Source: Halomonas zincidurans B6
GTDB lineage: Bacteria; Pseudomonadota; Gammaproteobacteria; Pseudomonadales; Halomonadaceae
Direction of reading: 5' to 3'
Length of the DNA stretch: 40,000 nt
Assembly (NCBI RefSeq): GCF_000731955.1
Contig: NZ_JNCK01000001.1
Coordinates: forward strand, 624,676 to 664,675
Part shown: positions 10,155-37,132 of the stretch, piece by piece
Layout: each line of letters opens with the position of its first letter
Position numbering within the stretch: the stretch's first letter is position 1
Position numbers and translations under genes: made by a program
The notes under the pieces: generated by a model
What the model was told of the DNA's origin: nothing
Seen by the model: the letters and a program-made list of their open reading frames with translations, nothing else
Database searches by the model: none

Positions 10155-10666
10155 GTGCGCCCGTGAAGGCGTGCACACAACTCGGTGGAAGTCCGAGTCG
10201 GGGTAAGCCATGGCCCCGTAGTCGAAGGTAACTGCGTCGCCGCGAGGCGGGGTGGAGAGCAACCGGAGGCGAACTGGCGGTCCGTAGGATGACGAACTCG
10301 ATTCGGCCGGGTCAGGTGGCGAGCTTGCTGGGAGACAGCGAAGCCTGAAACGCACCCGTCGCGCTGGGGTGGCGGCTAAAGCGACGGCGGGACCTGCCAG
10401 GTGGTTGGAGGCGGAACGTCAGGAAGGGTGCACGAGATAAGCGGGGAGTCCTGGTCACCGAGGTGACGGCGGCCAGGGGTCAGAGCCTTCATAGTACCGG
10501 CGTGCGGATCACGCCTTGGCCACGGCTCATCCCGGCGAAAGCAGGGATCTAGAGATGCGGGAGTGCTAACTCTGCCTACCGCCAAGACGCCGTACAGGAG
10601 GCGCAGAGAACAGAACCTGTGCCGAGGGAAGGGAGGCAGGAAGATGGATGCGAGAGACGACCAGAG

Positions 10667-12001
10667 ATGAGCGAACGCAACAGCACAGCATCGATAGTGT
10701 CCCCCCGTGGGACTAAGCAAGGTGCGTCATCACCCGCCGCTATGGCGGGGGGTGACCGCTCAATCTGGACGGACCGCATGTTGGCGGCGCTGGATAACGG
10801 CGTCAAAGGACGTAAATGGTTCAGCCTGATCGACAAGGTACACCGCTCGTCGACCCTAGCGAGTGCCTGGCTACAGGTCTACCGCAACCAGGGTGCAGCG
10901 GGGGTCGATCGGCAAAGCGTGTCACGCTTCGCCGCGCAGTCCGGACGCCACCTTGAGGAGCTCCAGGCCGACCTGGCGGCGGGGCGGTACCGCCCACAGG
11001 CGGTGCGGCGGATCGAGATCCCCAAGGGCGGCGGCAAGACACGCCCGTTGGGTATCCCTACCGTCAAGGACCGCATCGTTCAGGCGGCGCTCAAGCGTGT
11101 CATCGAACCGATTCTCGAGCACGAGTTCCTGCCGATGAGCTATGGCTTCCGACCAGGAAGAGGCTGCAAGGACGCCTTGCGGGCCGTCGATGATGGCCTC
11201 AAGGCCGGCATGACCTGGGGGGTCGACGCCGACCTGCAGGGTTACTTCGACAGCATCCCGCATGACCGCCTCATGAGCCGTGTTGAGGAACGGCTCAGCG
11301 ATGGTCGGTTGTTGTCACTGCTGCGTGCCTGGCTGACGCAGGACATCGTTAGCGAGATGAACTGCTGGAGCCCCACCGCGGGAGCGCCGCAAGGAGCGAT
11401 CATCAGCCCCTTGCTGGCGAATCTCTACCTGCACCCGCTGGACCAGGAGATGACCCAGCGCGGCTATCGCATGGTGCGGTATGCCGACGACTTTGTCATC
11501 CTCTGTTACAGCGAGCAGGAGGCCCGGCAGGCCCTGGCCCACGTGCAGGACTGGGTGATGACGAATGGCCTGACCCTGCACCCCGACAAGCCCCATATCG
11601 GTGACTGTCGACAACGCGGCGAGGGCTTCGACTTCCTGGGCTACCGCTTCGAGGCGGGAAAGCGCTGGGTACGTAGGAAGAGTCTCAGAGCCTTCAAGGA
11701 CAAGGTGAGAAGCAAGACGCGGCGGACGGAAGGTAAGAGTCTGCGGCAGATCATCGCCTCACTCAATCCTCTGCTAAGAGGCTGGTTCGGCTACCTCCGA
11801 CACGCCTATCGGACAACGTTCCGGCCGTTGGATGGCTTCATCCGCCGACGGCTTCGCGCCATCCTGCGCAAGCAGGAGAAACGCCCTGGGCGTGGCAACA
11901 CCGGAACAGACACGCGACGTTGGCCCAATAGGTTCTTCGCCGCTGCCGGGCTTTTCACCCTAGCCGAAGCCTGGCAGCAAGCGAGCCAATCACGATGTTG
12001 A
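10667..12001 (+). CDS. Group II intron reverse transcriptase/maturase
   Basis: RT motifs are RPLGIPTVKDRIVQAALKRVIEPILE, GFRPGRGCKDAL, PQGAIISPLLANLYL and YADDFVILC. The maturase X region reads LNPLLRGWFGYLRHAY. No HNH/En domain follows. The start could be ATG 10667 (chosen) or the track GTG at 10619. Confidence 0.9.
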   Translation: MSERNSTASIVSPRGTKQGASSPAAMAGGDRSIWTDRMLAALDNGVKGRKWFSLIDKVHRSSTLASAWLQVYRNQGAAGVDRQSVSRFAAQSGRHLEELQADLAAGRYRPQAVRRIEIPKGGGKTRPLGIPTVKDRIVQAALKRVIEPILEHEFLPMSYGFRPGRGCKDALRAVDDGLKAGMTWGVDADLQGYFDSIPHDRLMSRVEERLSDGRLLSLLRAWLTQDIVSEMNCWSPTAGAPQGAIISPLLANLYLHPLDQEMTQRGYRMVRYADDFVILCYSEQEARQALAHVQDWVMTNGLTLHPDKPHIGDCRQRGEGFDFLGYRFEAGKRWVRRKSLRAFKDKVRSKTRRTEGKSLRQIIASLNPLLRGWFGYLRHAYRTTFRPLDGFIRRRLRAILRKQEKRPGRGNTGTDTRRWPNRFFAAAGLFTLAEAWQQASQSRC

Positions 12002-12015
12002 AACTATCGACTGGA

Positions 12016-12083
12016 GAGCCGTGTGCGGGAGAACCGCACGCACGGTTCGGAGGGCGGGGAGGCGAAGCCTTCCCGACCCCTAT
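12016..12083 (+). ncRNA. Group II intron catalytic domain V plus branch-point domain VI
   Basis: The domain V hairpin has an AGC triad near the base of the helix, a 2-nt bulge on the 3' strand and a GAGAA-type loop. The domain VI helix is GGGGAGGC-gaa-GCCTTCCC (one G-U pair) with an unpaired A at 12076. Confidence 0.8.
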
Positions 12084-26540: not shown

Positions 26541-26566
26541 CAAAAATGCCCGGGACGAACCCGGGC
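26541..26566 (-). terminator. Rho-independent terminator ending the minus-strand polysaccharide locus (hairpin shared with convergent purA)
   Basis: On the minus strand the hairpin GCCCGGG-ttcgt-CCCGGGC is followed by ATTTTTG. It lies 23 nt after the Sel1-repeat gene stop. Confidence 0.65.
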
Positions 26567-26589
26567 AAACGACATGCGATTACAAGCGA

Positions 26590-29361
26590 TCAACTTCCAG
26601 TGGTGGGAACCTCACTGGCGATTTCGGCGGCCTGATCGTTCTCGAGCAGGTCGCGCATCGTTTCCAAGGCGACCTGACTATTGCCGTCGATGGTCTGGTC
26701 GAGCCACAGCAGCGCCTGTGACTGGTTGGCGTTTTCCAGCCCCTGAGTCCACAGGTAGGCCTTGGCGAGTGCCAGGCGAGCGGTGGGGTGGCCCTGACGG
26801 GCGGCTCGGAACAGGTATTCGGCGCCCTTGGCATTATCTTGCTCTAGCACGTCGCCACGCAGGTAGGCCCGCCCGAGAGTCGCCTGAGCGCCGGCATGGC
26901 CCTGCTCGGCCGCATCCTTTAGCAGTTCCAGACCGCGCTCCACGTTCTGGGTGATGCCGTCGCGCCCGTAGAGCAGTGAACGGCCCAGATTGGCTTGCGA
27001 AGAGAGACTGCCCGCTTCGGCCGCGCGAGTCAGCCACTGTTTGGCCTTGGCCGGGTCCTTGGCAACTCCCTCACCCGACAGATAGGCCTCGCCCAGTACC
27101 TGCGCGGCGTAGGCGTTGCCGCGCTCGGCGCTGCGTGTCAGCAGACCTATGCCCTTGTCGGTATCGCGCGCGACCCCGTTGCCCTTGAGGTACGCTTGGC
27201 CCAGGGTCTGCATGGCGCCCAGGTTGCCACCGCGAATGGCGCGCTGTAGCAAGCTGACCCCACGTTGCGGGTTGGCCGCCACCTGATTGCCGTTGAGCAG
27301 CCGCGCTCCCAGATCGGCGCTCGCACCGATATGGCCGCGCGAGACGGCGGTCTCCAGGTAATTAAGGCCCTTGGAGATGTTTTGCGGAAAGCGGTCCCCC
27401 TGCAGGTAGGCCCGTCCCAGTGTCGCCGCGGCGCCGGCGTGGCCAGCGTTGTTGGCCTTGGTCAGCCATTGGTAGGCCTTCTCGGTATTCTGTTCCAGGC
27501 CCAGGCGGCCCTTGAGATAGGCGCGCCCAAGATCGGCCATGGCGCCAGGTTCGCCGAGCCTGGCCGCGCGAATGATCGCATCGATGTTGTTGCCATCGCC
27601 ACGGTCGCGATAGAGCCTGGCCAGCGCAAGCTCGGCGGAATCGCGACCGGCCGCTTGGGCCCGCTTCAGCCAACGCTCGCCCTTGGCGTAATTCTGCGGC
27701 AAGCTCTCGCCGTCGCGATAAGCGCGGCCCAGCACGATCATTGCGTAGTCGTCACCCTGCTCGGCGGCCCGGGTGAGCAGCGATTGCGCTTCGCCGATAC
27801 TGTCGCTGTTGCCGCTGAGCGGGCCGTCGAGATAGGCCTTGCCGAGCACCGTCATCGCGGTGGTATCACCGCTCTTGATGGCTTGCCTGAGCAGCGTTTC
27901 GCCGGCTTGGGGGTCGGGGGGAATTACCTCCCCGCTCAGGTAGGCTTCGCCAAGCAGGCGCGCGGCAAACGACTGGTTCTGATTGGCGGCTTCACGCAGC
28001 AGTTTTTCGGCACGCGAGGGCGAGCGTGCCACCCCCGTGCCGGTCAGATAGGCTTCACCCAATTGAGCGGTAGCGTAACTGCTTCCGGCCTGGTGGCCGC
28101 GCTTGAGATAATCGATGGCCTTCCGCGGTTGGGCCAGGGTCCCTTCGCCATCCAGATAAATATCGCCAAGCACCGCCAATGCCAGCGGATCGTCTTTATC
28201 CGCGGCCTTTTCAAGCAGTCGTATGCCCTGTTGACGCTGCCCCGGTAATTGCGTTCCGTCGATATAGGCCCGACCCAGGGCGATGGTGGCATTCAGCGAC
28301 CCTTGCTCGGACGCGCGGGCCAACCACTGCTCGGCTCGCTGTGGCCGGGGTGTGATGCCTTGCTCACCCAGCAAGGCCTTGCCCAGATCGGTCATGGCTT
28401 CGACATCGCCCGCTTGCGCGGCCTGTTCGAGCATGGTAAGCGCGCGTTCGCTTTCGCCGCTGGCAAGTAGCGCCTCACCGACTTCGCCGAGCGCATCGGG
28501 GTCGCCGGAGTCGGCGGCACGCATCAACCAGCGCCGCTGCTTTTCGGGCTGGTAACCGAGCATGCCATCGCGCGCGTAGAGTGCCGCGAGATTGGTCATT
28601 GCATCGACGTCGCCCTGTCTGGCACGCGTCTCGATCGTTTCGGCATAACGCTGCGCGTAGTTCTTGGATTGCTGTGGATCGGCCTGATACCAACCGCCTT
28701 GTCGATACGCCTCGGCCAGCGCGAGCAGGGCGCTCGTGTTGCCGTTCTCGGCGGCCTTGCGGTAGAGCTGGATGGCGCGCTCGGGCTGGCGTTCGACGCC
28801 CTGGCCGCGGGCCAGCATGTCGGCTAGCAGCGGAGTGGCGTCGACTTCCCCTTCGTTGATCGCTTGCTTGAGTAGATAGAAGGCCAGGGTGTCGTTGCGT
28901 TCGACACCATCGCCATCCCGATACAGGCGCGCCAGATTGAGCGAGGCGTTGCCAAGGATTGGCGAAGGGCGTTGCAGGGCTTGGCCATAGAACTTGGCGG
29001 CGCGCTGTGGGTCGCGGGGTACGGCCTCGCCCTTGTCGTAAATCTTGGCCAACTCGTAATACGGCAGCATGAAACCTTCATTGGCCAGGGCCTGGAAGCG
29101 CGCGATGGCCGTTTGCGTGTTGCCTGCCGCTGCGGCCTGGCGTGCGAAATCGACTCGGCTCCAATCCAGGGCATCCATATCGGTCGGCCGACCGCCATCG
29201 AACCAGTCCTGATACTGCTGGGGTACGGCCGGAGCGGCGCTATCTCGAGTCACTTCATTCGTAGCGGCGCAACCCGCCAGAGCGAGCAGCAATGGCATGG
29301 TATATAGAATCGCAAGCCACTCGCGGCGTGGTATGCCACGGTAAGTCGTCTGATCGGTCAT
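26590..29361 (-). CDS. Sel1-repeat (TPR-like) lipoprotein, AlgK-like but about twice as long
   Basis: The start is ATG 29361, preceded by AAGGAGGA. A lipobox LLALAGC lies near residue 30. About two dozen Sel1-type repeats follow (consensus A..L..aY..G.GV..d...A..W...AA..G), running to the C-terminus with no beta-barrel-like segment. Confidence 0.8.
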   Translation of the reverse strand: MTDQTTYRGIPRREWLAILYTMPLLLALAGCAATNEVTRDSAAPAVPQQYQDWFDGGRPTDMDALDWSRVDFARQAAAAGNTQTAIARFQALANEGFMLPYYELAKIYDKGEAVPRDPQRAAKFYGQALQRPSPILGNASLNLARLYRDGDGVERNDTLAFYLLKQAINEGEVDATPLLADMLARGQGVERQPERAIQLYRKAAENGNTSALLALAEAYRQGGWYQADPQQSKNYAQRYAETIETRARQGDVDAMTNLAALYARDGMLGYQPEKQRRWLMRAADSGDPDALGEVGEALLASGESERALTMLEQAAQAGDVEAMTDLGKALLGEQGITPRPQRAEQWLARASEQGSLNATIALGRAYIDGTQLPGQRQQGIRLLEKAADKDDPLALAVLGDIYLDGEGTLAQPRKAIDYLKRGHQAGSSYATAQLGEAYLTGTGVARSPSRAEKLLREAANQNQSFAARLLGEAYLSGEVIPPDPQAGETLLRQAIKSGDTTAMTVLGKAYLDGPLSGNSDSIGEAQSLLTRAAEQGDDYAMIVLGRAYRDGESLPQNYAKGERWLKRAQAAGRDSAELALARLYRDRGDGNNIDAIIRAARLGEPGAMADLGRAYLKGRLGLEQNTEKAYQWLTKANNAGHAGAAATLGRAYLQGDRFPQNISKGLNYLETAVSRGHIGASADLGARLLNGNQVAANPQRGVSLLQRAIRGGNLGAMQTLGQAYLKGNGVARDTDKGIGLLTRSAERGNAYAAQVLGEAYLSGEGVAKDPAKAKQWLTRAAEAGSLSSQANLGRSLLYGRDGITQNVERGLELLKDAAEQGHAGAQATLGRAYLRGDVLEQDNAKGAEYLFRAARQGHPTARLALAKAYLWTQGLENANQSQALLWLDQTIDGNSQVALETMRDLLENDQAAEIASEVPTTGS

Positions 29362-29410
29362 GTGAATCCTCCTTGATTGACACCGGCACCTGGGCATCCA
29401 AGGACGCTAT

Positions 29411-30664
29411 CTATTCCAGGTCCTCGAAGAGCCGGTTCTGCTGTTTTTTCTGCTCGGTAGAGACCTGTTCCTGAGCCTTGGGATCCATGAAATAAAGCGT
29501 CACGTAGCCCCCCGCGCCTCGATTGAAAATAGGCCGCATGGTCTCGAGAAATTGGGTCAGGCGAGGATTGTTGAAACGTGCCAGGTAAATTTCCATCCAA
29601 GCTAGATATTGATCATCCTTGAGGAATCCCATGTATTGCTCCTGGGGCGCCAGATCACCTAGCTTCGAGGGATCCACGATGACATCGATGGCAAAGTTGA
29701 CGGCATCGCGGATGGTATTCCCATCAATCTCAAGATTGAAAATATCATACCCTTGGCGAGCGATTATCTGCATATTGGGGATAAGCCAGAGCAGGGCGTA
29801 GTTCTGATAGTGAACGGCACGCCGGCCACGCTTCATTTCCAGCGGAAAGGCACCTTCCTCGGTCATGTCGTTCAGCGCCGAATACACGGCACTGACGCCG
29901 AAGCGAAATAACTCATCGTCATCGGTAAGCACACCTACCATCGTGGCGTATAGCGCGCGACGATAGAAATGGTTGTTGCAACAGCTGTTGTTAGGCTGAC
30001 CGGGGATAGCCTTGTGTTGATAGGCTAATCGCTTGAGCCAGTCGTTGATCCGTTGTTTCTGTTCTGCCATGCCATCCACAGCCCCTCTTACCACTGAATA
30101 AGCCTCGGCGGCGGAGAAAATCATTGACTCGGTGGCAAACCAGGCCTGCGGCTTCGCTGAATCGTAATAGAACTTCATGAGCGCATCGCTGCGGGCCCAC
30201 TTGTCGAGAAACCGGATCAGACATTCGCCATAGTAGATATCGCCGCTGGCCACATAGGAGCCGGCAAGCTTGGCGACGGTTTTCTCGAATTCAAATAGTG
30301 GGCTGGATATTTCACGCCATGCCTTGGGGCTGGGATAAAAGCCTGGGATTCGAATCTTTGTATCCAGCGGTGGAATCTCCAGCAATTGCCGGCAACTGGG
30401 CCCCGTTGAAAGCCTTTCGATCTGCGTCAGCAGCAACGGATTGTCGGTCCTCTGAAGAAGCTCCATGCGTTCTTGAACGTCGAAGTAAGAGGCATTCGGG
30501 CGGGTCACCGTGTACTCTGATAAATCGAGTTTCTGGCGCTCCTTGATCGACATCGCCTGGGTGGAGGCGGCCCATACCATTAGCAGGATCGTAACCATCA
30601 TCAGTAATGGGCCAAGGGGCTGACGAGGTCTTGTGTGTTGGCGAACTTCATTCATGGCGGACAT
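29411..30664 (-). CDS. PL5-family (AlgL-like) polysaccharide lyase, secreted/periplasmic
   Basis: A signal peptide is present (LLMVWAASTQA). The alginate_lyase-type motifs are SCCNNHFYRRALY (compare NNHSYW in AlgL) and EMKRGRRAVHYQNYALLWL. The start is ATG 30664 or 30655. Confidence 0.75.
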   Translation of the reverse strand: MSAMNEVRQHTRPRQPLGPLLMMVTILLMVWAASTQAMSIKERQKLDLSEYTVTRPNASYFDVQERMELLQRTDNPLLLTQIERLSTGPSCRQLLEIPPLDTKIRIPGFYPSPKAWREISSPLFEFEKTVAKLAGSYVASGDIYYGECLIRFLDKWARSDALMKFYYDSAKPQAWFATESMIFSAAEAYSVVRGAVDGMAEQKQRINDWLKRLAYQHKAIPGQPNNSCCNNHFYRRALYATMVGVLTDDDELFRFGVSAVYSALNDMTEEGAFPLEMKRGRRAVHYQNYALLWLIPNMQIIARQGYDIFNLEIDGNTIRDAVNFAIDVIVDPSKLGDLAPQEQYMGFLKDDQYLAWMEIYLARFNNPRLTQFLETMRPIFNRGAGGYVTLYFMDPKAQEQVSTEQKKQQNRLFEDLE

Positions 30665-30691
30665 GGCGACTCATTGTCGAAATGGCGAAAC

Positions 30692-30711
30692 GGCTGAACG
30701 ATCGTTCAGCC
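30692..30711 (-). terminator. Perfect 20-bp palindrome overlapping the jelly-roll lyase stop codon (possible internal attenuator)
   Basis: GGCTGAAC-gatc-GTTCAGCC forms an 8-bp stem. On the minus strand it is followed by GTTTCGCCATTTCG. Confidence 0.35.
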
Positions 30712-31623
30712 CCGGTCAGCGTAAACACGGAAATCGGCAAAATCGGCATGCTGGTCCCTGGGCGTACGCCACCCCTTGCCGTTACCGCCGAAGAAGGTAG
30801 AAAACATCAGCCCGTCAGCATACACATCGCTCTGCCGGCGATAGACGATGCCTCGTTGCTCGAGGATCGGTTCTCCGTCGACCCATACCCGAGCGATCCC
30901 GTTGTCGCTATCGGGATCGTTGAGGATGACTTCCTGTTCGAGAGTGACCCACTCGCCGGTTGGAAAACGCCAGAGTCCACGCCCGACCGACTTGCCGTAA
31001 TCGTTGTCCTCGTCCTTGTTGACGACGTACTCGTAGAGCTCGCCCTGGCCGTTCTTGCGCCACATGAAGCGCATCGAAAAGCCGTCACCGGTCACTTCGT
31101 CGCCACCGCTGGGCGCTTGACCGCCATAGAGTCCCGGTAGTTTGCCACCCTTGACGAAATCGAAGTCCTCGGGAAAGCGAACCTTGTACTGCAGGCATGC
31201 CCGCTCTGCATTGCTGAGTGCTGGCAGGGTTGCATAGAAGCCGGCGCCACCGGTTTCGGTGTCGCTGGGCGCCGATGTGCCCTTGGGATAGCTGACCCGA
31301 AACCCGCGTTCTCCGATGCCGGTCTGGCTGGCATCGAGCACTTCGATGTTCTTCTCCGTGCCCCAGTCGTCGTTGGTGCCAAAGGCCTGGCGAACCGCAC
31401 GCTTGCCGTCTTCGACCTGGGGAGGCTCGACGTCGGCCGCCAGCGAGTAACGTTGCGAGCAGGGAGCCACCTGGGGCACCGGTAGCGGGGCCTTGTCTTG
31501 TTCATCGTCACCGGCCAGTACGCCCGGAGTGGCGAATAGCAAGGCCAACGGCAGAGCGAGGCCCGCGGAAAGCGGGTGAATCCGGTGAACTGACCGATGG
31601 CTGTGAGTCACGCGGGTAAACAT
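30706..31623 (-). CDS. Secreted beta-jelly-roll polysaccharide lyase (Pfam Polysacc_lyase PF14099-like)
   Basis: The start is ATG 31623, preceded by AAGGAGA. A signal peptide is present (LALPLALLFATPGVLAG). The core reads GGAGFYA...FVKGGKLPGLYGG...GFSMRFMWR...GEWVTLEQEV...ARVWVDG, which I recognise as the ConA-like lyase family. Family assignment needs an HMM search. Confidence 0.6.
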   Translation of the reverse strand: MFTRVTHSHRSVHRIHPLSAGLALPLALLFATPGVLAGDDEQDKAPLPVPQVAPCSQRYSLAADVEPPQVEDGKRAVRQAFGTNDDWGTEKNIEVLDASQTGIGERGFRVSYPKGTSAPSDTETGGAGFYATLPALSNAERACLQYKVRFPEDFDFVKGGKLPGLYGGQAPSGGDEVTGDGFSMRFMWRKNGQGELYEYVVNKDEDNDYGKSVGRGLWRFPTGEWVTLEQEVILNDPDSDNGIARVWVDGEPILEQRGIVYRRQSDVYADGLMFSTFFGGNGKGWRTPRDQHADFADFRVYADRG

Positions 31624-31701
31624 GCTTGTCTCCTTGACGGCCAGGCCGACATTGCTGCGGGCATGGCGTCGGTTAGGCGACATCCGACTGCGAGGATGCC
31701 G

Positions 31702-33288
31702 TTAACTGGCGGCGGCGGTCTCGGCCTGATCGTCGCTATCATCGAAGACCTGGTTGAAGACCTTATTGAAGAGCTGCTCGGCCTGTTGATACACGGCGCG
31801 ACCACCCTGCCAGACCCACTCCACGGTGGCATCGACAATAGGTGCTTCGCTGAAGCGTACGTCCACCGGGACGCCGACGGCGCTCGCCGGCAACGGCTCT
31901 TCGGGCACGAGCAGGACGCTGGCGACGTTCTGCTGCTGACGTACCCAATTGGGGAAGCCGGCGCGAGGCTGGCGTTCAACATCCAGCGACACGGTGCGCA
32001 CCTGGGCCTGGATCGGCTCGGAGGCGTTGGGTAGCGCGATGTACGCCGTCTGGCGAGGCTCGATACGGCCGATATCATTCATATGCACCAGCGCCTCGAC
32101 CATGACATCGTTCTGCCCGGTCTTGATCAGCGTCATGATGCGTTCGCTCTTGTTGATATAGGTGCCGCCGGAACTGCTGCGGGCCCAGGCCACCAGGCAG
32201 TCGCAGGGACTGTAGGTGACATTGGCAGACATCCGCGATTGCAATGCATCGATACGCGAACGCTGATAATCGCGGGACATTTCGAACTGGTTGATACGGA
32301 TGCGAGCAACTTCAGCCGGCACGCTTTCGAAGTTGGCTGCTGAGCTCGAAGGGCCCGAACTGCCGCTGGGCATGTATACCTGGTTGGCGCCGGGGGAATC
32401 GATACGCGCCTGCAGATTCTTGATCAGCTGGTTGTTGTAGTTGAGAGAAGCCTTGGCCAAGATGAGGTCGGTCTTGAGTTGGCTATTCTTGACCCGTACC
32501 AGCTTCTGGTCGCGTTGGACCTTGTCGCCGGCTTGAAAGTCGTGCGGGGCGAGTATTCCCGAGCCCGGTGCGCGAATATCGATGCGCGGCGCGGTTACCG
32601 CAGCGAAATCGGGCTCGATGAGAAAGAAGTTGCGATAGGCGGTCGCCGTGATTACCGCCAGTAACAGCACTGCAGCCAGTGCCAGCGCCATGTAGCGTCC
32701 CCAATACTTGCGCTCGCGAGGCTTTCTTTGCGCCACGCTGGTAGTTTGACGCTTGCGTGGGGTCTGGGGGTCTTCCGTGGCGACCAGGCTTTCCACGGAG
32801 GCATGATTGCCGCTCAGGTGAGCGCGGATGACTCGCCGGAGCAGTTCGCGGTGACGCCGTGCGATACGGGTGATCTCGAAGGCGATCTCGTACTGCTTGT
32901 CGCGCCGCCGGCCTGCGTCGCGCAGCACCTTGGCATCGACGGGCACGATGAGCTCCGCTGCGCCGGCAACCAGCAATAGCGAAGCCGATACGACCTTGCC
33001 TTCCTCGATGGGCTTGTCGCTATACACAGAGAAGCCCCCGAGTGACAGGTCATGCCCGGGCAGGGTGGTGTCGTCAGCGAAACGTACCTGAAAAGGCGCA
33101 TCGACACGCACATGGCGGCGTTCGTCGCGCCGCTCGTGGCCCAGCTGGCTATCTCGGGCGATCTGCTCGTCATGCTCGTCGTGCATTTTGGTCGAATGCC
33201 ACTCGCCATCCCGGTCAGGCCGGGATGGCGTGTCCTGTCCGTCGAGGGTCGGCTCTCTTCTGGAATCACGCGTATTGTCATCGCTCAT
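31702..33288 (-). CDS. Alg44-like co-polymerase: PilZ (c-di-GMP receptor) domain, one TM segment and a HlyD/membrane-fusion periplasmic domain
   Basis: An RBS AAGGAG precedes ATG 33288. The PilZ motifs are RDERR (RxxxR) and DLSLGG (DxSxxG). The TM segment is YMALALAAVLLLAVITATAY. The HlyD-like region reads IDIRAPGSGILAPHDFQAGDKVQRDQKLVRV and beyond. Confidence 0.75.
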   Translation of the reverse strand: MSDDNTRDSRREPTLDGQDTPSRPDRDGEWHSTKMHDEHDEQIARDSQLGHERRDERRHVRVDAPFQVRFADDTTLPGHDLSLGGFSVYSDKPIEEGKVVSASLLLVAGAAELIVPVDAKVLRDAGRRRDKQYEIAFEITRIARRHRELLRRVIRAHLSGNHASVESLVATEDPQTPRKRQTTSVAQRKPRERKYWGRYMALALAAVLLLAVITATAYRNFFLIEPDFAAVTAPRIDIRAPGSGILAPHDFQAGDKVQRDQKLVRVKNSQLKTDLILAKASLNYNNQLIKNLQARIDSPGANQVYMPSGSSGPSSSAANFESVPAEVARIRINQFEMSRDYQRSRIDALQSRMSANVTYSPCDCLVAWARSSSGGTYINKSERIMTLIKTGQNDVMVEALVHMNDIGRIEPRQTAYIALPNASEPIQAQVRTVSLDVERQPRAGFPNWVRQQQNVASVLLVPEEPLPASAVGVPVDVRFSEAPIVDATVEWVWQGGRAVYQQAEQLFNKVFNQVFDDSDDQAETAAAS

Positions 33289-33324
33289 GTATTGCTCCTT
33301 GTCCGGTATTCGTATCCGTACGCT

Positions 33325-35262
33325 TCAGTCCTGGCGGGACGCGAGCCTGACGTTCATGTCGCTCAGGGTGACTGTGCCAAGAATGGTTTGCAGTTCGCAG
33401 GGTGCTTCGGTCCTACAGTCGAACTGCCTGGCATCGGCCAGGATCTGGCCATCATTGGCTTGCAGGTTTGCAGCGAGAGCCGGGCTCAAGTGGAGCACCG
33501 TCGGCCGCTCGCCGCCATGACCCTTGATTAGTGAAGAGCGTATTTCACCCAGTTCGAAAAGTTTCTCGGTCAGCTGAGAGCCGACGTACAGATTGCCTGC
33601 GGACAACTGCACTTGGCCGCCTTCTGGGGCATCGGCCAGCGCCAGCGCTAGCCAACCACCATCGTCGCCGGCGTCGCCGCGTTCGGGGTCGCTGAACTGC
33701 TGTTCGCTTTCGTCCCCCATGACTTCCAGCGTCACCCGGTCGGGCGGTGCGACCACCCCAACGAAAATGGCTAGCGCCAGGAGCATGCTGCCGAGATACA
33801 CGCTGTGCATGAAATGGCTCATGCGTCGTTGACGTCTGGCGGCCTTGGGGTCGTCGGGCTCGCCGGCGGAAATCCCTTGACGCGACCAGGATTGACGATT
33901 GAAGCGAAAGCTGACGTAGGTCTTGAGCAGCGCGCCGCCGATCTGGTTGTAATAAAGCAGAGGAATCCAGAGCAGGCTGATACGACCCCGCTGCAAGGCC
34001 AGTACGCACGTCGCCACACTGCGTGTGAAGAAGATCCACAGCAGGTAGGCGAAGATGAACGATGGCCGCACGAACAGGGTCAGCATGATCGCCACCGTGG
34101 GCCCGATCAGCGTCGTCCACATCGACAGGCGCTGATCGACCAGACTCCACCAGGTGAACAACCCCATGCGCTTGGGGCCCAAGGCGATGGCTCGGCCACT
34201 GGTGCGCAGCATATTGCCGTACCACCGACGCATCAGGTCGATAGTGGACTTGAAGAAGCGGTCCTTGTCGGGAAGCTCCTCGAAGCCGGCCACGTACACG
34301 TCCGGAATATAGAGCATCTTCCAGCCGTTCTTGAGCAGCCAGTACCAGGTCGACTTGTCATCGCCGGAGAGAAACTTGAAGTTGCCAAAGCGCCAGTGCT
34401 CGACATGGTCGTTTTCGACCAGATCGATGAAATCGGGATTGGTGGCAAGTTCGGCGCGAAAGGCGCTGTAACGGCCGGTCAGTACCAGCAGCCGCTCGGA
34501 AACTGCCATCGAGCTCATGACCAGATGGCGCTGCGCGTAACGCAGGTCGTACCACTCCTTGGTAACGTCGCCGCCGTTGACTATCGAACGATTGTTGGTG
34601 GTCAATGCCCCCAGGTCGTCCTGCGCCAGGAAAAAGGAGAGTGAGCGTGGAAGCGTGCCCGGCTCGATCTCGATATCGCCGTCCATAGTTATCAATAACG
34701 AGCGGTGGCTGGGCATGCGGCGCGAGATCGCGCGCAGCACCTCGGCCATTGCCGAGCGCTTGCCGTCACCCTTCTGAAACATGTAACTGACTTCGACGTT
34801 TTGCGGCCAGCCGTTTTCCGCCATTACATGATCGATGACATCGACGTCGCTGCGGTCCGAGATCGCCGCGAAGATCGTCGTCGGCACGCCATAATCCCGC
34901 GCTTCACGTATCAGCGCATCGTAGACCGAGAACGAAACCTCCGGTTCGATGCGAAAGGACGTGCAAAGCACATAAAGCGCATCGGGACGTTGAGTCGCTC
35001 CGGCCGCATCGGCCTTTTGCCGCAATTGCGGGAACACATGGCGGTTGAACCAGACCGAGCGCACGGCTTGGGTAAACCACCATGAATAGCGCCAAGCGCC
35101 GACTACGCCGATCGCGAGGATGAAGCTCTTGGAGTTGGGCGAGAAGACTTCCGGTGGCAGCTCGAAGACGAGCACCACCAGAACAGAGAGCATGAACAGC
35201 AGTGTCGTTACCTCGGTAACACGACTGGCCGTCGAACCCTTGCTGTGCTTGTTCAGCGACAT
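33325..35262 (-). CDS. Alg8-like processive family-2 glycosyltransferase (polysaccharide synthase) with a ~138-aa extra C-terminal domain
   Basis: The start is ATG 35262 (MSLNKH), preceded by GGAAGG. The track ORF start at 35394 would overlap ugd. GT2/Alg8-type motifs are ITMDGD, LTGRYSAFR, FLSGDDKSTWYW and LMRRWYGNMLR. TM segments flank the catalytic domain. Confidence 0.75.
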   Translation of the reverse strand: MSLNKHSKGSTASRVTEVTTLLFMLSVLVVLVFELPPEVFSPNSKSFILAIGVVGAWRYSWWFTQAVRSVWFNRHVFPQLRQKADAAGATQRPDALYVLCTSFRIEPEVSFSVYDALIREARDYGVPTTIFAAISDRSDVDVIDHVMAENGWPQNVEVSYMFQKGDGKRSAMAEVLRAISRRMPSHRSLLITMDGDIEIEPGTLPRSLSFFLAQDDLGALTTNNRSIVNGGDVTKEWYDLRYAQRHLVMSSMAVSERLLVLTGRYSAFRAELATNPDFIDLVENDHVEHWRFGNFKFLSGDDKSTWYWLLKNGWKMLYIPDVYVAGFEELPDKDRFFKSTIDLMRRWYGNMLRTSGRAIALGPKRMGLFTWWSLVDQRLSMWTTLIGPTVAIMLTLFVRPSFIFAYLLWIFFTRSVATCVLALQRGRISLLWIPLLYYNQIGGALLKTYVSFRFNRQSWSRQGISAGEPDDPKAARRQRRMSHFMHSVYLGSMLLALAIFVGVVAPPDRVTLEVMGDESEQQFSDPERGDAGDDGGWLALALADAPEGGQVQLSAGNLYVGSQLTEKLFELGEIRSSLIKGHGGERPTVLHLSPALAANLQANDGQILADARQFDCRTEAPCELQTILGTVTLSDMNVRLASRQD

Positions 35263-35359
35263 GGCAAACCTTCCATGACTGGCGATGGCGGGCTGCTGGC
35301 GTTGGCACGATGCGAGAAGCATTGCCCGTTCCGCTAGCAGTACAGGGAAGCGATGGCCA

Positions 35360-36709
35360 TCAAGTTGTCTGGCGTGGCTGCAACGAGTCGCCACGACCCA
35401 TAGCGAAATACAGCAGTCCGGCTGATTTCACACTTTGCGGATCGAAGAGGTTACGGCCATCGATGATGACCGGGGTGCGCAGGGTGGCGGCGATATGCCC
35501 GAAATCCACGGCGCGGAAGGCTTTCCATTCGGTACAGATAACCAGGGCATCGGCGCCTTCGAGTGTGTCGTCGCGGCGTTCGCAGTAGCTCAGGTCGTTG
35601 CGTTCGCCATAGATGCGCCGGCATTCGTCCGTTGCCTCTGGGTCGAAGGCTTGCACCCGTGCGCCGGCCGCCCACAAGGCTTCCATCAGGGTACGACTCG
35701 GCGCCTCGCGCATATCGTCGGTATTGGGCTTGAACGCCAGCCCCCACAAGGCGATGGTCTTGCCGGCAAGGTCGCCATCGAAAGCCTGTTCGAGCTTCTG
35801 GAACAGCTTGCTCTTCTGGCGCTTGTTGACGGCTTCGACAGCACTCAGCAGCTCGGCCTTGTAGCCGATGTCCGCGGCGGTGCGGCCGAGCGCCTGAACG
35901 TCCTTGGGGAAGCACGAACCGCCGTAGCCGCAGCCGGGATAGATGAAGTGATAGCCGATACGCGGATCGCTGCCGATGCCGTGGCGAACGTCCTCGATGT
36001 CGGCGCCCAGGCTTTCCGCCAGGTTGGAAATCTCGTTCATGAAGCTGATCTTGGTGGCCAGCATGGCGTTGGCCGCGTACTTGGTCAGCTCGGCGCTGCG
36101 CACGTCCATGAACATCAGCTTTTCATGGTTGCGATTGTACGGCGCGTAGCATTCGCGCATCGCCTTGACGACCCGCTCGGAATCGGTGCCGACGATGATG
36201 CGTGCGCCCTGGGAGAAGTCCTGGACGGCAGCGCCTTCCTTGAGGAACTCGGGGTTGGAGCACACATCGAAGGCCAAATCCAGGCCCCGCTCGTCGAGCA
36301 CCCGCCGGACGGTTGCGGTGACCTTGTCGGCGGTACCCACCGGAACGGTGGACTTGTCGACGATGACCTTGGGCTCGCACATGTGCTGGGCGATGGTTTC
36401 GGCGACCTTGAGCACGTACTTGAGGTCGGCGCTGCCGTCTTCGTCGGCGGGGGTGCCGACGGCGATGAACTGCAGCTTGCCGAACGCAACGGCCTCGGTG
36501 GCATCGGTGGTGAAGCGCAGCCGGCCGGCACGCATGTTGGTGGCGATCATCGGCTCGAGGCCGGGCTCGTAGATGGGCACCTCGCCGCGATTGAGGCGGG
36601 CGATCTTGTCGGCGTCGACGTCGACGCAGACGACTTCATGGCCGACATCGGCCAGGCAGGTTCCGGTCACAAGACCGACATAACCGGATCCAAAGATGGT
36701 TATCTTCAT
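35360..36709 (-). CDS. ugd: Nucleotide-sugar 6-dehydrogenase, UDP-glucose 6-dehydrogenase type
   Basis: [32 protein letters not shown]...IYEPGLE and the catalytic [14 protein letters not shown] resemble Ugd/UdgA rather than AlgD (MRISIFGLGYVGAV..., GGSCLPKD). An RBS GGAGAGG lies upstream. Confidence 0.8.
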
Positions 36710-36911
36710 AAGTCACCTCTCCATGGTGTTTGATTTTTGCCGCTACCGAGCGGATGGCATGCACGCCTTGTCCGTTACGTGAGCGAGCGCGTCAGGCTGA
36801 CTGTCTATCCCTTGTGCGAATGCGAGCATTCGGCAGTGCCGACGTATAATTTCTTGCTGGCTCTCGGCTATCGAGGTTGGCTATCGATCCAGGCCGGCAT
36901 GCCAGTCTTCT

Positions 36912-36940
36912 ATTCTTAGTCTCCTAAATTAGCCTTTCAA
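36912..36940 (-). promoter_or_regulatory. Candidate sigma70-type promoter for the ugd-led operon
   Basis: On the minus strand the sequence reads TTGAAA-N17-AAGAAT (-35 at 36940-36935, -10 at 36917-36912). This would give a 5' UTR of about 195 nt. Confidence 0.35.
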
Positions 36941-37000
36941 TTCAGCGGGTAATGTTTTGTAACCTGTAAGTTACGGCCTCTAGCCTAGGAAAAGCTGGCT

Positions 37001-37030
37001 CCAACGTCAAAACCTGACGTTGGTTTTTTT
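37001..37030 (+). terminator. Orphan plus-strand Rho-independent terminator in the ugd / Rrf2 divergent intergenic region
   Basis: The hairpin CCAACGTCA-aaacc-TGACGTTGG is followed by TTTTTTT. No plus-strand gene ends upstream of it. Confidence 0.7.
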
Positions 37031-37069
37031 CGAATACACTGTTCGAAAATGTCCGATAGTCTCCCTGTC

Positions 37070-37098
37070 TTCACAGTCAGCGCATATAGGACTAAAAT
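37070..37098 (+). promoter_or_regulatory. Candidate sigma70 promoter of the Rrf2-sufBCD operon
   Basis: TTCACA-N17-TAAAAT ends 35 nt upstream of ATG 37133. Confidence 0.45.
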
Positions 37099-37132
37099 GG
37101 TACGCAATCGCTGAGCGAGCTGGAGAGCAGCA

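Follow-up and report, generated by a model that had tools for sequence, protein, structure and literature searches.

What does a bacterium make when it joins the core of an alginate machine to an enzyme for a different sugar precursor? The question is raised by an operon in Halomonas zincidurans B6, within a 40-kb window (the whole stretch of DNA analysed, 40,000 nucleotides). Since an alginate-type core stands here beside a UDP-glucose dehydrogenase, the product is probably not alginate but a polyglucuronate-type slime that is as yet uncharacterised. The initial annotation called the system a candidate undescribed one, and a search of the accessible literature gave no description of it. Of the refuting checks that the annotation proposed, all that could be run favoured it. 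A 2023 paper stated that the genes for bacterial glucuronan were unknown (PMC10180729).

Operon layout and synthase core

Six co-directional genes occupy positions 26,590-36,709 of the minus strand, to which all features below belong. They are separated by 97, 36, 78, 41, and 49 bp, with start codons as chosen in the initial annotation, whose operon coordinates and gaps proved exact. The products, in order, are Ugd (35,360-36,709), an Alg8-family GT2 synthase (33,325-35,262), an Alg44-like PilZ-TM-HlyD protein (31,702-33,288), a PL14 lyase (30,706-31,623), a PL5 lyase (29,411-30,664), and a Sel1-repeat lipoprotein (26,590-29,361). All domains were confirmed with Pfam. Four genes have strong Shine-Dalgarno sequences, as had been claimed: ugd (GGAGAGG), the Alg44-like gene (AAGGAG), the PL14 gene (AAGGAG), and the Sel1 gene (AAGGAGG). 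Those of the synthase (GGAAGG) and PL5 (AATGAG) genes are moderate and weak, respectively. The predicted closing terminator also was found: a strong intrinsic hairpin at 26,547-26,567, starting 23 nt past the Sel1 stop codon, with an 8-bp stem (7 G-C), a 5-nt loop, and a TTTTT tail. The candidate promoter proposed upstream fared less well. A weak sigma-70-like candidate lies 5' of ugd (36,912-36,940; TTGAAA-17-AAGAAT, 9/12 positions matched), but shuffled sequence yields promoter-like matches at least as often as this locus, so the site is not evidence by itself. Alignment of the intergenic regions 5' of ugd reveals a conserved ribosome-binding site, along with a partly conserved block, CGTAAC-N6-GGTTACAAAA.

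Judged by its sequence relationships, the operon dehydrogenase is clearly of the Ugd type, not the AlgD type. The 449-residue protein contains all three UDPG_MGDP_dh domains (N-terminal, central, and C-terminal), and its top NCBIfam match is the UDP-glucose 6-dehydrogenase TuaD (485 bits). Among PDB entries it matches Burkholderia BceC (2y0e) over its full length with 564 bits and UgdG with 441, versus 207 for AlgD. It is 34% identical to Pseudomonas aeruginosa AlgD, and 32-34% across AlgD-type enzymes. These values place it outside the AlgD clade, as first proposed. Its predicted activity, forming UDP-glucuronate from UDP-glucose, has strong support from homology.

The synthase (645 residues; Pfam Glyco_tranf_2_3) shares 44% identity with P. 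aeruginosa Alg8 over 448 residues (E 4e-125). Its catalytic domain spans roughly residues 93-350 (34,213-34,986), and the motifs DGD, GDDKS, and RWYGN are invariant in alignments. In the tree it falls in a clade apart from canonical Alg8, in favour of the initial reading; synthases from AlgD-linked control loci are closer to Alg8. Fixed differences between Ugd-linked and AlgD-linked synthases adjoin active-site motifs: FQKGDGKR versus VRIPGTGKR; TTNN versus TTNE; and LSGDD versus LTGDD. The AF2 model (pLDDT 85.7) retrieves hyaluronan synthases, BcsA, and chitin synthases as top Foldseek matches; with hyaluronan synthases, TM is about 0.62 (target-normalised) at 12-14% sequence identity.

The co-polymerase (528 residues; Pfam PilZ E 1e-8, HlyD_3 E 5e-9) is colinear with P. 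aeruginosa Alg44, the SPCDC motif included, at 22% identity (E 3e-9). It consists of a cytoplasmic PilZ domain (residues 53-154; 32,827-33,132), a single transmembrane helix (residues 199-217), and a periplasmic HlyD/MFP domain (about residues 319-442; 31,963-32,334). The PilZ motifs for c-di-GMP are present as RRDERR (RxxxR) and DLSLGG (DxSxxG), and are kept in 76 of 79 loci. Their preservation suggests a protein of the c-di-GMP-gating type, as originally proposed. An Alg8/Alg44-type core is thus in place, but to call it a rewired alginate core, as the initial annotation did, overstates the case: the system is a sister lineage within the diverse Alg8 family, not a trimmed alg operon.

Accessory proteins, gene content and conservation

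Both lyases carry signal peptides. The first (305 residues; N-terminal hydrophobic segment at residues 18-36) had been described only as a jelly-roll lyase; it is indeed a lyase, specifically of family PL14 (Polysacc_lyase_14, E 6e-66). In the PDB it matches Aplysia AkAly30 (5gmt) with 112 bits and, more weakly, chlorovirus vAL-1 with 37. The second (417 residues) is an AlgL-family PL5 enzyme, as claimed (Alginate_lyase, E 9e-39). It matches Sphingomonas A1-III with 165 bits, the 7fhu-series "polysaccharide lyase" with 96, and AlgL with 75; P. aeruginosa AlgL is 27% identical to it, and the catalytic motifs NNH and HYQNY are seen in the PDB alignment. The nearest characterised relatives of the two are mannuronate-specific alginate lyases (AkAly30; A1-III and AlgL). 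Activity on beta-1,4-glucuronan is known for the PL5 enzyme Smlt1473. The PL14 family also has members acting on this polymer (PMC11890756), and vAL-1 too is counted as active on it. Both lyases are present in every locus, and duplicated in some.

The Sel1-repeat protein is the giant lipoprotein it was said to be (923 residues; Pfam Sel1 E 3e-91, with 10-17 repeats; lipobox LAGC). A crude scan detected the lipobox in 46 of 70 homologues. The protein is about twice as long as AlgK, about 28% identical to it at repeat level, and scores 120 bits against the NCBIfam AlgK model (cutoff 700). By analogy it may serve as an AlgK-like periplasmic or outer-membrane scaffold.

Searches with tblastn for P. 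aeruginosa AlgE, AlgG, AlgX, and AlgI gave no match in the whole window, in keeping with the claim that only parts like Alg8, Alg44, AlgK, and AlgL are present. Moreover, none of about 80 loci encodes an outer-membrane porin, and genes for epimerisation or acetylation are likewise absent from all of them. The proposed "secretion system" is therefore incomplete, and secretion by it putative.

Halophilic lineages carry the locus as part of their core genome. All six genes are found in 60 of the 62 Halomonadaceae loci with enough flanking sequence, always adjoining purA; the operon is chromosomal, vertically maintained, and held at one site across the salt-loving Halomonadaceae. The ugd gene is retained in these loci although the upstream neighbour switches from Rrf2-suf to cobO. 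An adjacent ugd is lacking in two complete Halomonadaceae loci and in three minimal alphaproteobacterial loci. Six other alphaproteobacterial loci (in Caenispirillum, Kiloniellaceae, Dongiaceae, and Thalassobaculum) have the same gene types, arranged as GT-Alg44like-ugd-PL14-PL5-Sel1, with a Ugd from another lineage that is 41-46% identical to the Halomonadaceae enzyme. The one compared with PDB entries, from Caenispirillum, likewise favours UgdG (489 bits) over AlgD (175). The Caenispirillum synthase is 69-71% identical to that of the window and nests among Halomonadaceae synthases, whereas its Ugd is only 43% identical. This combination of a close synthase and a distant Ugd marks a non-orthologous replacement that preserved the Ugd function in the locus.

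The proposed polymer and related systems

Donor specificity of a GT2 synthase cannot be read from its sequence. We put at roughly 0.6 the probability that this is an Alg8/Alg44-type operon for synthase-dependent exopolysaccharide production, with UDP-glucuronate rather than GDP-mannuronate as substrate. Since porin, epimerase, and acetylation genes are missing from every locus, the polymer is most likely a beta-linked polyuronide derived from UDP-GlcA, neither acetylated nor epimerised, of the glucuronan (poly-beta-1,4-GlcA) type. Ugd would oxidise UDP-glucose to UDP-GlcA. The synthase would polymerise the sugar, presumably GlcA, at the inner membrane and thread the chain through its own channel; activity would require c-di-GMP on the PilZ domain of its partner, as in Alg44. 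The HlyD-like domain of that partner would extend into the periplasm, where the Sel1 lipoprotein may provide a scaffold reaching the outer membrane. The secreted lyases might trim or clear the polymer.

Could the operon simply be a reduced alginate system, with GDP-mannuronate supplied by an AlgD-type enzyme encoded elsewhere, an unepimerised and unacetylated mannuronan as product, and ugd serving other glycans? This is unlikely. The similarity of the synthase to a true mannuronan synthase, the M-specific relatives of its lyases, and the few loci without adjacent ugd all speak for it, as do the database names of synthase homologues ("mannuronan synthase" or "Alg8"), but these names are automatic annotations. 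Against it stand the linkage to Ugd in two gene orders, two Ugd lineages, and one non-orthologous replacement, and a synthase clade distinct from canonical Alg8, with fixed substitutions beside the catalytic motifs. Control loci point the same way. In P. aeruginosa, Rhizobium gallicum, and Loktanella, the dehydrogenase of the Alg8-family locus is of the AlgD type (47% identical to AlgD in Rhizobium and Loktanella), and each locus has genes of the AlgG, AlgI, or AlgX type: all three in Pseudomonas only; AlgG in Rhizobium; and AlgI, AlgX, and AlgF homologues in Loktanella. An AlgD-type enzyme together with AlgG, AlgI, or AlgX homologues never occurs in the examined loci of the Ugd-linked clade. 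Quite improbable is a heteropolymer, made by one bifunctional synthase that alternates UDP-GlcA with a housekeeping UDP-sugar (UDP-Glc or UDP-GlcNAc). It would follow the logic of HasB/HasA and Cps3D/Cps3S, and accords with hyaluronan synthases as the best structural matches, but identity to these is low, the synthase is a clear homologue of Alg8, which makes a homopolymer, and PL5 and PL14 are known for homopolyuronate blocks, not glycosaminoglycans.

The polymer might also never leave the cell, the lyases cutting it in the periplasm to anionic oligouronides, retained or leaked, which would resemble osmoregulated periplasmic glycans and suit halophiles. The absent porin, the constant and at times duplicated lyases, the core-genome status in halophilic lineages, and the link between c-di-GMP and salt responses in Halomonas (PMC12421958) are consistent with this idea. 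We consider it very doubtful: the reading is wholly inferential, true secretion systems too have AlgL-type lyases as integral parts, the long Sel1 lipoprotein suggests a scaffold directed at the outer membrane, and a porin may be encoded elsewhere. Least credible of all is a catabolic locus for degrading algal alginate. Two genes of "alginate lyase" families are present, and PL5 and PL14 are counted as markers of brown-seaweed degradation in CAZyme surveys (PMC9676036), but gene content contradicts this reading: the operon centres on a membrane GT2, a PilZ-MFP co-polymerase, and a nucleotide-sugar dehydrogenase, and genes for oligoalginate lyase, transporter, or DEH reductase are missing.

Among known systems, the P. 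aeruginosa alginate operon (algD-8-44-K-E-G-X-L-I-J-F-A) shares with the putative polyglucuronate operon a nucleotide-sugar 6-dehydrogenase as first gene, a homologous synthase, a distant but colinear PilZ-TM-MFP co-polymerase with c-di-GMP-binding motifs, a TPR/Sel1 lipoprotein, and a PL5 lyase. The operon here differs in its Ugd-type dehydrogenase; in lacking AlgE, AlgG, AlgX/I/J/F, and AlgA; in its additional PL14 lyase; in a synthase from a separate clade with an added C-terminal domain; and in a Sel1 protein twice the size of AlgK and far under the AlgK model cutoff. The Rhizobium gallicum (pRGM101b) and Loktanella salsilacus (plas2) loci encode synthases 40-41% identical to that of the window, with the dehydrogenase gene immediately 5'; next comes an Alg44-like gene in Rhizobium, as here, and a hypothetical protein gene in Loktanella. 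Both differ by their AlgD-type dehydrogenase and by having neither PL14 nor a giant Sel1 protein, and Loktanella adds a nucleotidyltransferase-type gene.

The epm cluster of Pseudomonas alkylphenolica is reportedly another "alginate-like" polyuronide locus, homologous to Alg but distinct from the canonical operon; it is said to comprise 11 ORFs mirroring most alg genes, to make a substituted polymannuronate, and to be known from Pseudomonas, Alcanivorax, and Marinobacter but not Halomonadaceae. Streptococcal HasB/HasA and Cps3D/Cps3S likewise pair Ugd with a single processive membrane GT2 that uses UDP-GlcA, and the Chlorella virus and Xenopus hyaluronan synthases (PDB 7sp6-9, 8smm) are the best fold match to the operon synthase; HAS and Cps3S systems lack a PilZ/MFP partner, lyases, and a Sel1 scaffold, and make alternating heteropolymers. 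Sinorhizobium meliloti BgsBA, for mixed-linkage beta-glucan, is also a minimal, c-di-GMP-activated pair of GT2 and membrane-fusion-type partner with no dedicated porin in its operon, but BgsA resembles cellulose synthase and uses its own C-terminus to bind c-di-GMP, the glucan is neutral, and Ugd, lyases, and Sel1 protein are absent (PMC5567048). The glucuronans of S. meliloti M5N1CS and Peteryoungia rosettiformans (PMC10180729) are of the predicted class, beta-1,4-polyglucuronate accompanied by glucuronan lyase activity. Rhizobial glucuronan is O-acetylated, whereas the operon here has no acetyltransferase.

The C-terminal domain of the synthase

The domain added to the synthase (residues 535-645, about 110 residues; 33,328-33,660) contains two invariant cysteines and is predicted, from hydropathy and charge, to be periplasmic. 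It has no Pfam match and no significant PDB fold match; AF2 models it with a pLDDT of about 96. Most of the clade has it, with exceptions in Litchfieldella, Franzmannia, and some Vreelandella. P0121 has a longer C-terminal extension, whose beginning aligns with the first 24 residues of the domain; that extension shows weak similarity to the beta-helices of C5-epimerases and pectate lyases.

A six-gene operon of the Halomonadaceae

The locus comprises six minus-strand genes, all present exactly as the initial annotation had described them: ugd (35360-36709), encoding a three-domain UDP-glucose/GDP-mannose dehydrogenase (Pfam, NCBIfam); the GT gene (33325-35262), encoding a GT2 synthase (Pfam Glyco_tranf_2_3); a gene for an Alg44-like protein (31702-33288; PilZ and HlyD_3 domains); two lyase genes, PL14 (30706-31623; Polysacc_lyase_14, E 6e-66) and PL5 (29411-30664; Alginate_lyase/PL5, E 9e-39), both with signal peptides; and a gene for a lipoprotein with 10-17 Sel1 repeats and the lipobox LALAGC (26590-29361). 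Pfam and NCBIfam bear out the domain assignments of all six products. The product formerly called a jelly-roll lyase is a lyase, and its specific family is PL14.

Intergenic gaps of 97, 36, 78, 41, and 49 bp are reproduced with the start codons that the annotation implied, and four strong Shine-Dalgarno sequences are present (GGAGAGG, AAGGAG, AAGGAG, and AAGGAGG). The proposed terminator is a convincing intrinsic hairpin just past the last stop codon (26567-26547, minus strand; an 8-bp stem with 7 G-C pairs, followed by T5). The proposed upstream promoter fares less well: its hexamers exist and match 9 of 12 positions, but such hexamers are no more frequent than in shuffled sequence and therefore carry little weight. 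An Rfam scan of the ugd 5' region found no riboswitch or other family, the c-di-GMP riboswitch included.

The surroundings are a housekeeping region, in the order mutL ... hflX-hflK-hflC-hisZ-purA, the locus, and Rrf2-sufB-sufC. The locus belongs to the chromosome of a halophilic gammaproteobacterium and is no mobile island. The comparative-genomics survey proposed earlier as a check covered 79 loci from a one-genome-per-species collection, onto each of which the six window proteins were mapped by tblastn and gene calls. All six genes, in the window order, stand beside purA-hisZ in 60 of the 62 Halomonadaceae loci with enough flanking sequence; genera include Halomonas, Modicisalibacter, Salinicola, Billgrantia, Onishia, Franzmannia, Litchfieldella, and Vreelandella. 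Where the upstream neighbour switches from Rrf2-suf to cobO, ugd remains attached. Complete genomes that carry the locus include those of Halomonas socia NY-011 (CP049827), H. litopenaei (NZ_CP197403), Caenispirillum salinarum (NZ_CP085224), and Halomonas sp. HP20-15; H. maura CECT 5298 (L078) and H. smyrnensis AAD6 (L069) are tractable carriers. Within-locus duplications of the PL5, PL14, or Sel1 gene (L004, L060, and L070 in Modicisalibacter; L021, L024, and L036 in Billgrantia; and L002) add no new gene types. Porin, epimerase, and acetyltransferase genes occur in none of the surveyed loci. In six loci from Alphaproteobacteria (Caenispirillum, Kiloniellaceae, Dongiaceae, Thalassobaculum), all six gene types recur, arranged as GT-Alg44like-ugd-PL14-PL5-Sel1. 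The operon serves biosynthesis and is an ancient feature conserved in the Halomonadaceae; it is one of the synthase-dependent, PilZ-controlled polysaccharide systems, with homology to the core of the alginate machinery.

Smaller assemblies of Alg8-family genes also exist: L083 (Vibrio penaeicida), L085 and L081 (metagenome/Geminicoccaceae), and L084. The Vibrio locus consists only of the GT and a 525-aa PilZ-like protein; other examples read GT-Alg44like-PL5 only, or Sel1-GT-833-aa Alg44like-PL14-PL5. None of these four minimal loci contains a porin gene.

Several local features deserve record. In the ugd-Rrf2 intergenic region (36710-37132), six relatives share without change the block GACCATTTTAGTCCT that adjoins the Rrf2 start; conservation is partial for a palindrome, CGTAAC-N6-GGTTAC, with AAAA after it; and a plus-strand hairpin with a T7 tail (37001-37023) has no plus-strand gene upstream to terminate. 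These could possibly be operator or regulatory elements. G+C content is about 55% across the PL5 and PL14 genes (29001-31000), against 60-66% in the remaining locus and flanks, so the lyase pair may differ in origin or in codon usage. Elsewhere in the window lies a group II intron (at least 10619-12083, plus strand): an ORF with RVT_1 and GIIM maturase domains (10619-12001) is directly followed by an Rfam Intron_gpII match (12014-12083, 55 bits).

Dehydrogenase, synthase, and the activated precursor

The proposal that a Ugd-like enzyme replaces AlgD is upheld. Against PDB sequences, the window Ugd matches the UDP-glucose dehydrogenases BceC of Burkholderia (564 bits, full length) and UgdG of Sphingomonas (441 bits); P. 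aeruginosa AlgD, the GDP-mannose 6-dehydrogenase, scores 207 bits over residues 1-371 only. Pairwise identity to that AlgD is 34%, and AlgD-type enzymes generally fall at 32-34%. With Ugd-type scores so far above AlgD, the enzyme lies outside the AlgD clade, which settles a question on which the original proposal could have failed. Its gene, ugd, opens the operon and is conserved together with the rest, as expected of a dedicated UDP-GlcA supply for glucuronan biosynthesis.

Alphaproteobacterial loci provide a second example. The Caenispirillum dehydrogenase, the only one of these run against the PDB, likewise matches UgdG (489 bits) better than AlgD (175 bits), and the remaining alphaproteobacterial enzymes group with it by identity. 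They form a separate Ugd lineage, 41-46% identical to Halomonadaceae Ugd and 48-54% among themselves. The GT of Caenispirillum, at 69-71% identity to that of the window, falls among the Halomonadaceae GTs in the tree, yet its Ugd is only 43% identical. One Ugd has therefore been swapped for another, while Ugd function was kept in the locus.

The synthase itself is clearly a member of the Alg8 family, for which an exhaustive profile search yields no more than 569 clusters, counted as representatives at 50% identity. It is 44% identical to P. aeruginosa Alg8 over 448 aa (E 4e-125, pairwise); its nearest homologues belong to Halomonas sp. HP20-15 (93%) and Modicisalibacter (79%), followed by many other Halomonadaceae. 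In a neighbour-joining tree, distance-based and computed without bootstraps, the Halomonadaceae and alphaproteobacterial GTs form a clade apart from canonical Pseudomonas Alg8, in answer to the phylogenetic check initially proposed. The DxD, GDD, and RW motifs are invariant. Fixed differences between Ugd-linked and AlgD-linked GTs adjoin active-site motifs: M161/F162/Q163 before GDGKR; N224 (TTNN versus TTNE); V260 in LVLTGR; and S299 (LSGDD versus LTGDD). From the window GT to Alg8, the group-specific residues read Q163I, N224E, V260T, and S299T. They are compatible with a change of donor, though no proof of one.

An AlphaFold model of the GT (AF2; pLDDT 85.7) was compared with the PDB by Foldseek. 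Hyaluronan synthases match best, followed by BcsA and chitin synthases (E 1e-14 to 1e-7), which supports a processive, channel-forming synthase. By predicted fold and by motifs, the protein would be a membrane-embedded processive GT2 with its own channel, as in synthase-dependent exopolysaccharide systems. PDB sequence searches with the GT and the Alg44-like protein returned nothing useful, and there is no Alg8 structure on which to model donor binding.

Alginate biosynthesis with reduced gene content is one rival to the reading of a polymer made from UDP-GlcA. The alginate system and the window locus have in common an Alg8-family GT2 and a PilZ-TM-MFP Alg44-like co-polymerase. They differ in that the alginate system uses an AlgD-type GDP-mannose dehydrogenase, whereas the window locus has a Ugd-type enzyme, and in that the AlgE porin, the AlgG epimerase, and the AlgX/I acetylation proteins of the former are unmatched in the latter. 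(The pairwise comparisons used database proteins of a genuine P. aeruginosa alg operon, L082.) The reported absence of AlgE, AlgG, AlgX, and AlgI stands: tblastn with the P. aeruginosa queries gave no match in the 40-kb window. AlgE likewise had no match in L080, L081, or L083-L087, and no Alginate_exp domain occurs among the called genes of the related loci; AlgG, AlgX, and AlgI, the queries used beside AlgE, had none in the same-clade loci L080 (Caenispirillum) and L081. The defining alginate features tested at the locus (AlgD, AlgE, AlgG, acetylation) are absent.

With the GT as query, a tblastn search of plasmids recovered Alg8-family genes from Rhizobium chromids and from Roseobacter-group plasmids. 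Two of these alginate-like operons served as control loci, and between them they do hold AlgG, AlgX, and AlgI homologues. R. gallicum pRGM101b (L086) encodes AlgD-type, Alg8, Alg44, and AlgG homologues; Loktanella salsilacus plas2 (L087) encodes AlgD-type, Alg8, AlgI, AlgX, and AlgF homologues along with a nucleotidyltransferase. Both neighbouring dehydrogenases are AlgD-type (47% identical to AlgD, about 400 bits; only 34% to window Ugd), and both GTs are nearer to P. aeruginosa Alg8 than to the window GT. Across the Alg8 family, then, the AlgD-type enzyme travels with alginate-modifying genes, and the Ugd-type enzyme with PL14, PL5, and a long Sel1 protein. No argument for UDP-GlcA as the substrate of the window synthase is stronger than this correlation, and we regard UDP-GlcA as the likely precursor.

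A GT of this kind occurs in nine Rhizobium records; that of pRGM101b lies within 858299-877591. P0365 is the canonical Alg8 of Pseudomonas alkylphenolica, whose epm locus is reportedly an 11-ORF alg-like cluster. The Pseudomonas 'Pap' cluster was considered as a relative and rejected, being of Wzx/Wzy type.

Co-polymerase, lyases, and the probable product

The Alg44-like protein is 22% identical to P. aeruginosa Alg44 (E 3e-9), colinear over the PilZ, TM, and MFP parts, and both contain SPCDC. It matches no Alg44-specific Pfam family, and so is best termed a distant homologue. A single TM helix (199-217) separates the PilZ and HlyD parts. The PilZ motifs RxxxR (RRDERR) and DxSxxG (DLSLGG) are present and are kept in 76 of 79 loci, as predicted for a c-di-GMP receptor coupled to the synthase in this class of systems. 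By analogy with Alg44, c-di-GMP binding should be required for polymerisation (PMC2170427). The Sel1 protein resembles AlgK at the repeat level only: it has 923 aa versus 475 aa, and scores 120 bits against the NCBIfam AlgK equivalog, whose cutoff is 700. A Sel1/TPR scaffold is present in the locus; gene calls in the related loci reveal no beta-barrel in any of them.

The two candidate polymers, polyM and polyGlcA, differ only at C2. Among PDB sequences, the PL5 protein scores highest against Sphingomonas A1-III (165 bits), followed by the 7fhu-series 'polysaccharide lyase' (96 bits) and AlgL (75 bits); its pairwise identity to P. aeruginosa AlgL is 27%. The 7fhu-series enzyme we take to be Smlt1473, active on polyGlcA, polyManA, and hyaluronan. 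For the PL14 protein the top match is AkAly30, an M-specific lyase from a mollusc (112 bits), with chlorovirus vAL-1 more distant (37 bits). Subfamilies of PL14 include endo-beta-1,4-glucuronan lyases (PMC11890756), and the PL14 and PL5 families both hold glucuronan-active members (PMC11890756; vAL-1). With M-specific nearest relatives in families that have glucuronan-active members, the lyases are neutral between the two polymers. A catabolic 'alginate utilisation' reading of the locus was rejected on gene content.

The locus is very probably an Alg8/Alg44-type biosynthetic operon. The full mechanistic statement, a UDP-GlcA-fed, PilZ-controlled Alg8/Alg44-type polyuronide operon, we place at a probability of roughly 0.6. 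Judged from gene content, the likeliest product is probably a UDP-GlcA-derived, beta-linked polyuronide, and glucuronan-like. Rhizobial glucuronans are O-acetylated, whereas the window locus is without an MBOAT, AlgX, or AlgJ-type gene. A bolder proposal, to which we assign somewhat less than even odds, is that this would be the first genetically defined bacterial poly-beta-1,4-glucuronate system: one with a donor switch from GDP-ManA to UDP-GlcA, a core trait of the Halomonadaceae and several halophilic alphaproteobacteria, porin-less in cis, and with two obligatory lyases shaping the product.

If true, this would provide a genetic basis for bacterial polyglucuronate, a polymer of industrial and biomedical interest. 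The Alg8/Alg44 machinery would not be alginate-specific, donor switching would have occurred within one synthase family, and the few residues next to the catalytic motifs in which the GT groups differ would become testable. Halomonas species are industrial chassis organisms, and a conserved c-di-GMP-controlled slime operon would bear on their aggregation and downstream processing. Database labels on homologues of the locus read 'mannuronan synthase', 'Alg8', and 'alginate lyase'; marine surveys therefore count Halomonas PL5 and PL14 proteins as alginate producers or degraders.

Within literature coverage that lacked most subscription journals, no published description of an Alg8/Alg44 plus Ugd system or of the Halomonas locus was found. 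The genes or loci for bacterial glucuronan biosynthesis were stated to be unknown in 2023 (PMC10180729). A highly transcribed Halomonas PL5 beside 'alg8' and 'alg44' was assumed to act in exopolysaccharide biosynthesis (PMC11890756); this protein, from Halomonas sp. S2151, was the most strongly transcribed of its PL5 group in the Tara Oceans data (PMC11890756; PMC9676036). Consecutive gene numbering is consistent with its belonging to a window-type locus. In H. hydrothermalis, a c-di-GMP-stimulated polysaccharide and a salt-dependent biofilm were described, the genes not being named (PMC12421958).

Appended domains and a divergent neighbour

Residues 535-645 of the GT follow the last TM helix and are modelled at pLDDT of about 96. 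The loop just before them is rich in basic residues (11 K+R versus 3 D+E) and the tail is acidic, which points to a periplasmic location. Two cysteines of this domain are invariant; Pfam yields no match to it, and the PDB none of significance by fold. The opening 24 residues of the domain align to the start of the C-terminal extension (about 350 residues) of P0121, a synthase of the sister clade. The P0121 extension weakly resembles the beta-helices of pectate lyases and mannuronan C5-epimerases (AlgE4/AlgE6), with the match at the extension start. The GT domain might conceivably be a truncated remnant of a P0121-like beta-helix module.

Many Alg8-family synthases, among them P0121, P0127, P0131, P0147, P0148, and P0154, are 876-964 aa long, of which a C-terminal extension makes up about 350 aa. 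Their architecture suggests fusion to a periplasmic polymer-modifying module.

In Caenispirillum salinarum, divergent genes directly upstream of the locus (L080:3142-9450) encode the ABC transporter and adaptor of a type I secretion system together with a 1061-aa protein that combines CBM2 with RTX calcium-binding repeats and weakly matches a parallel beta-helix. This protein might be a secreted polymer modifier, in a layout that recalls secreted AlgE-type epimerases and lyases.
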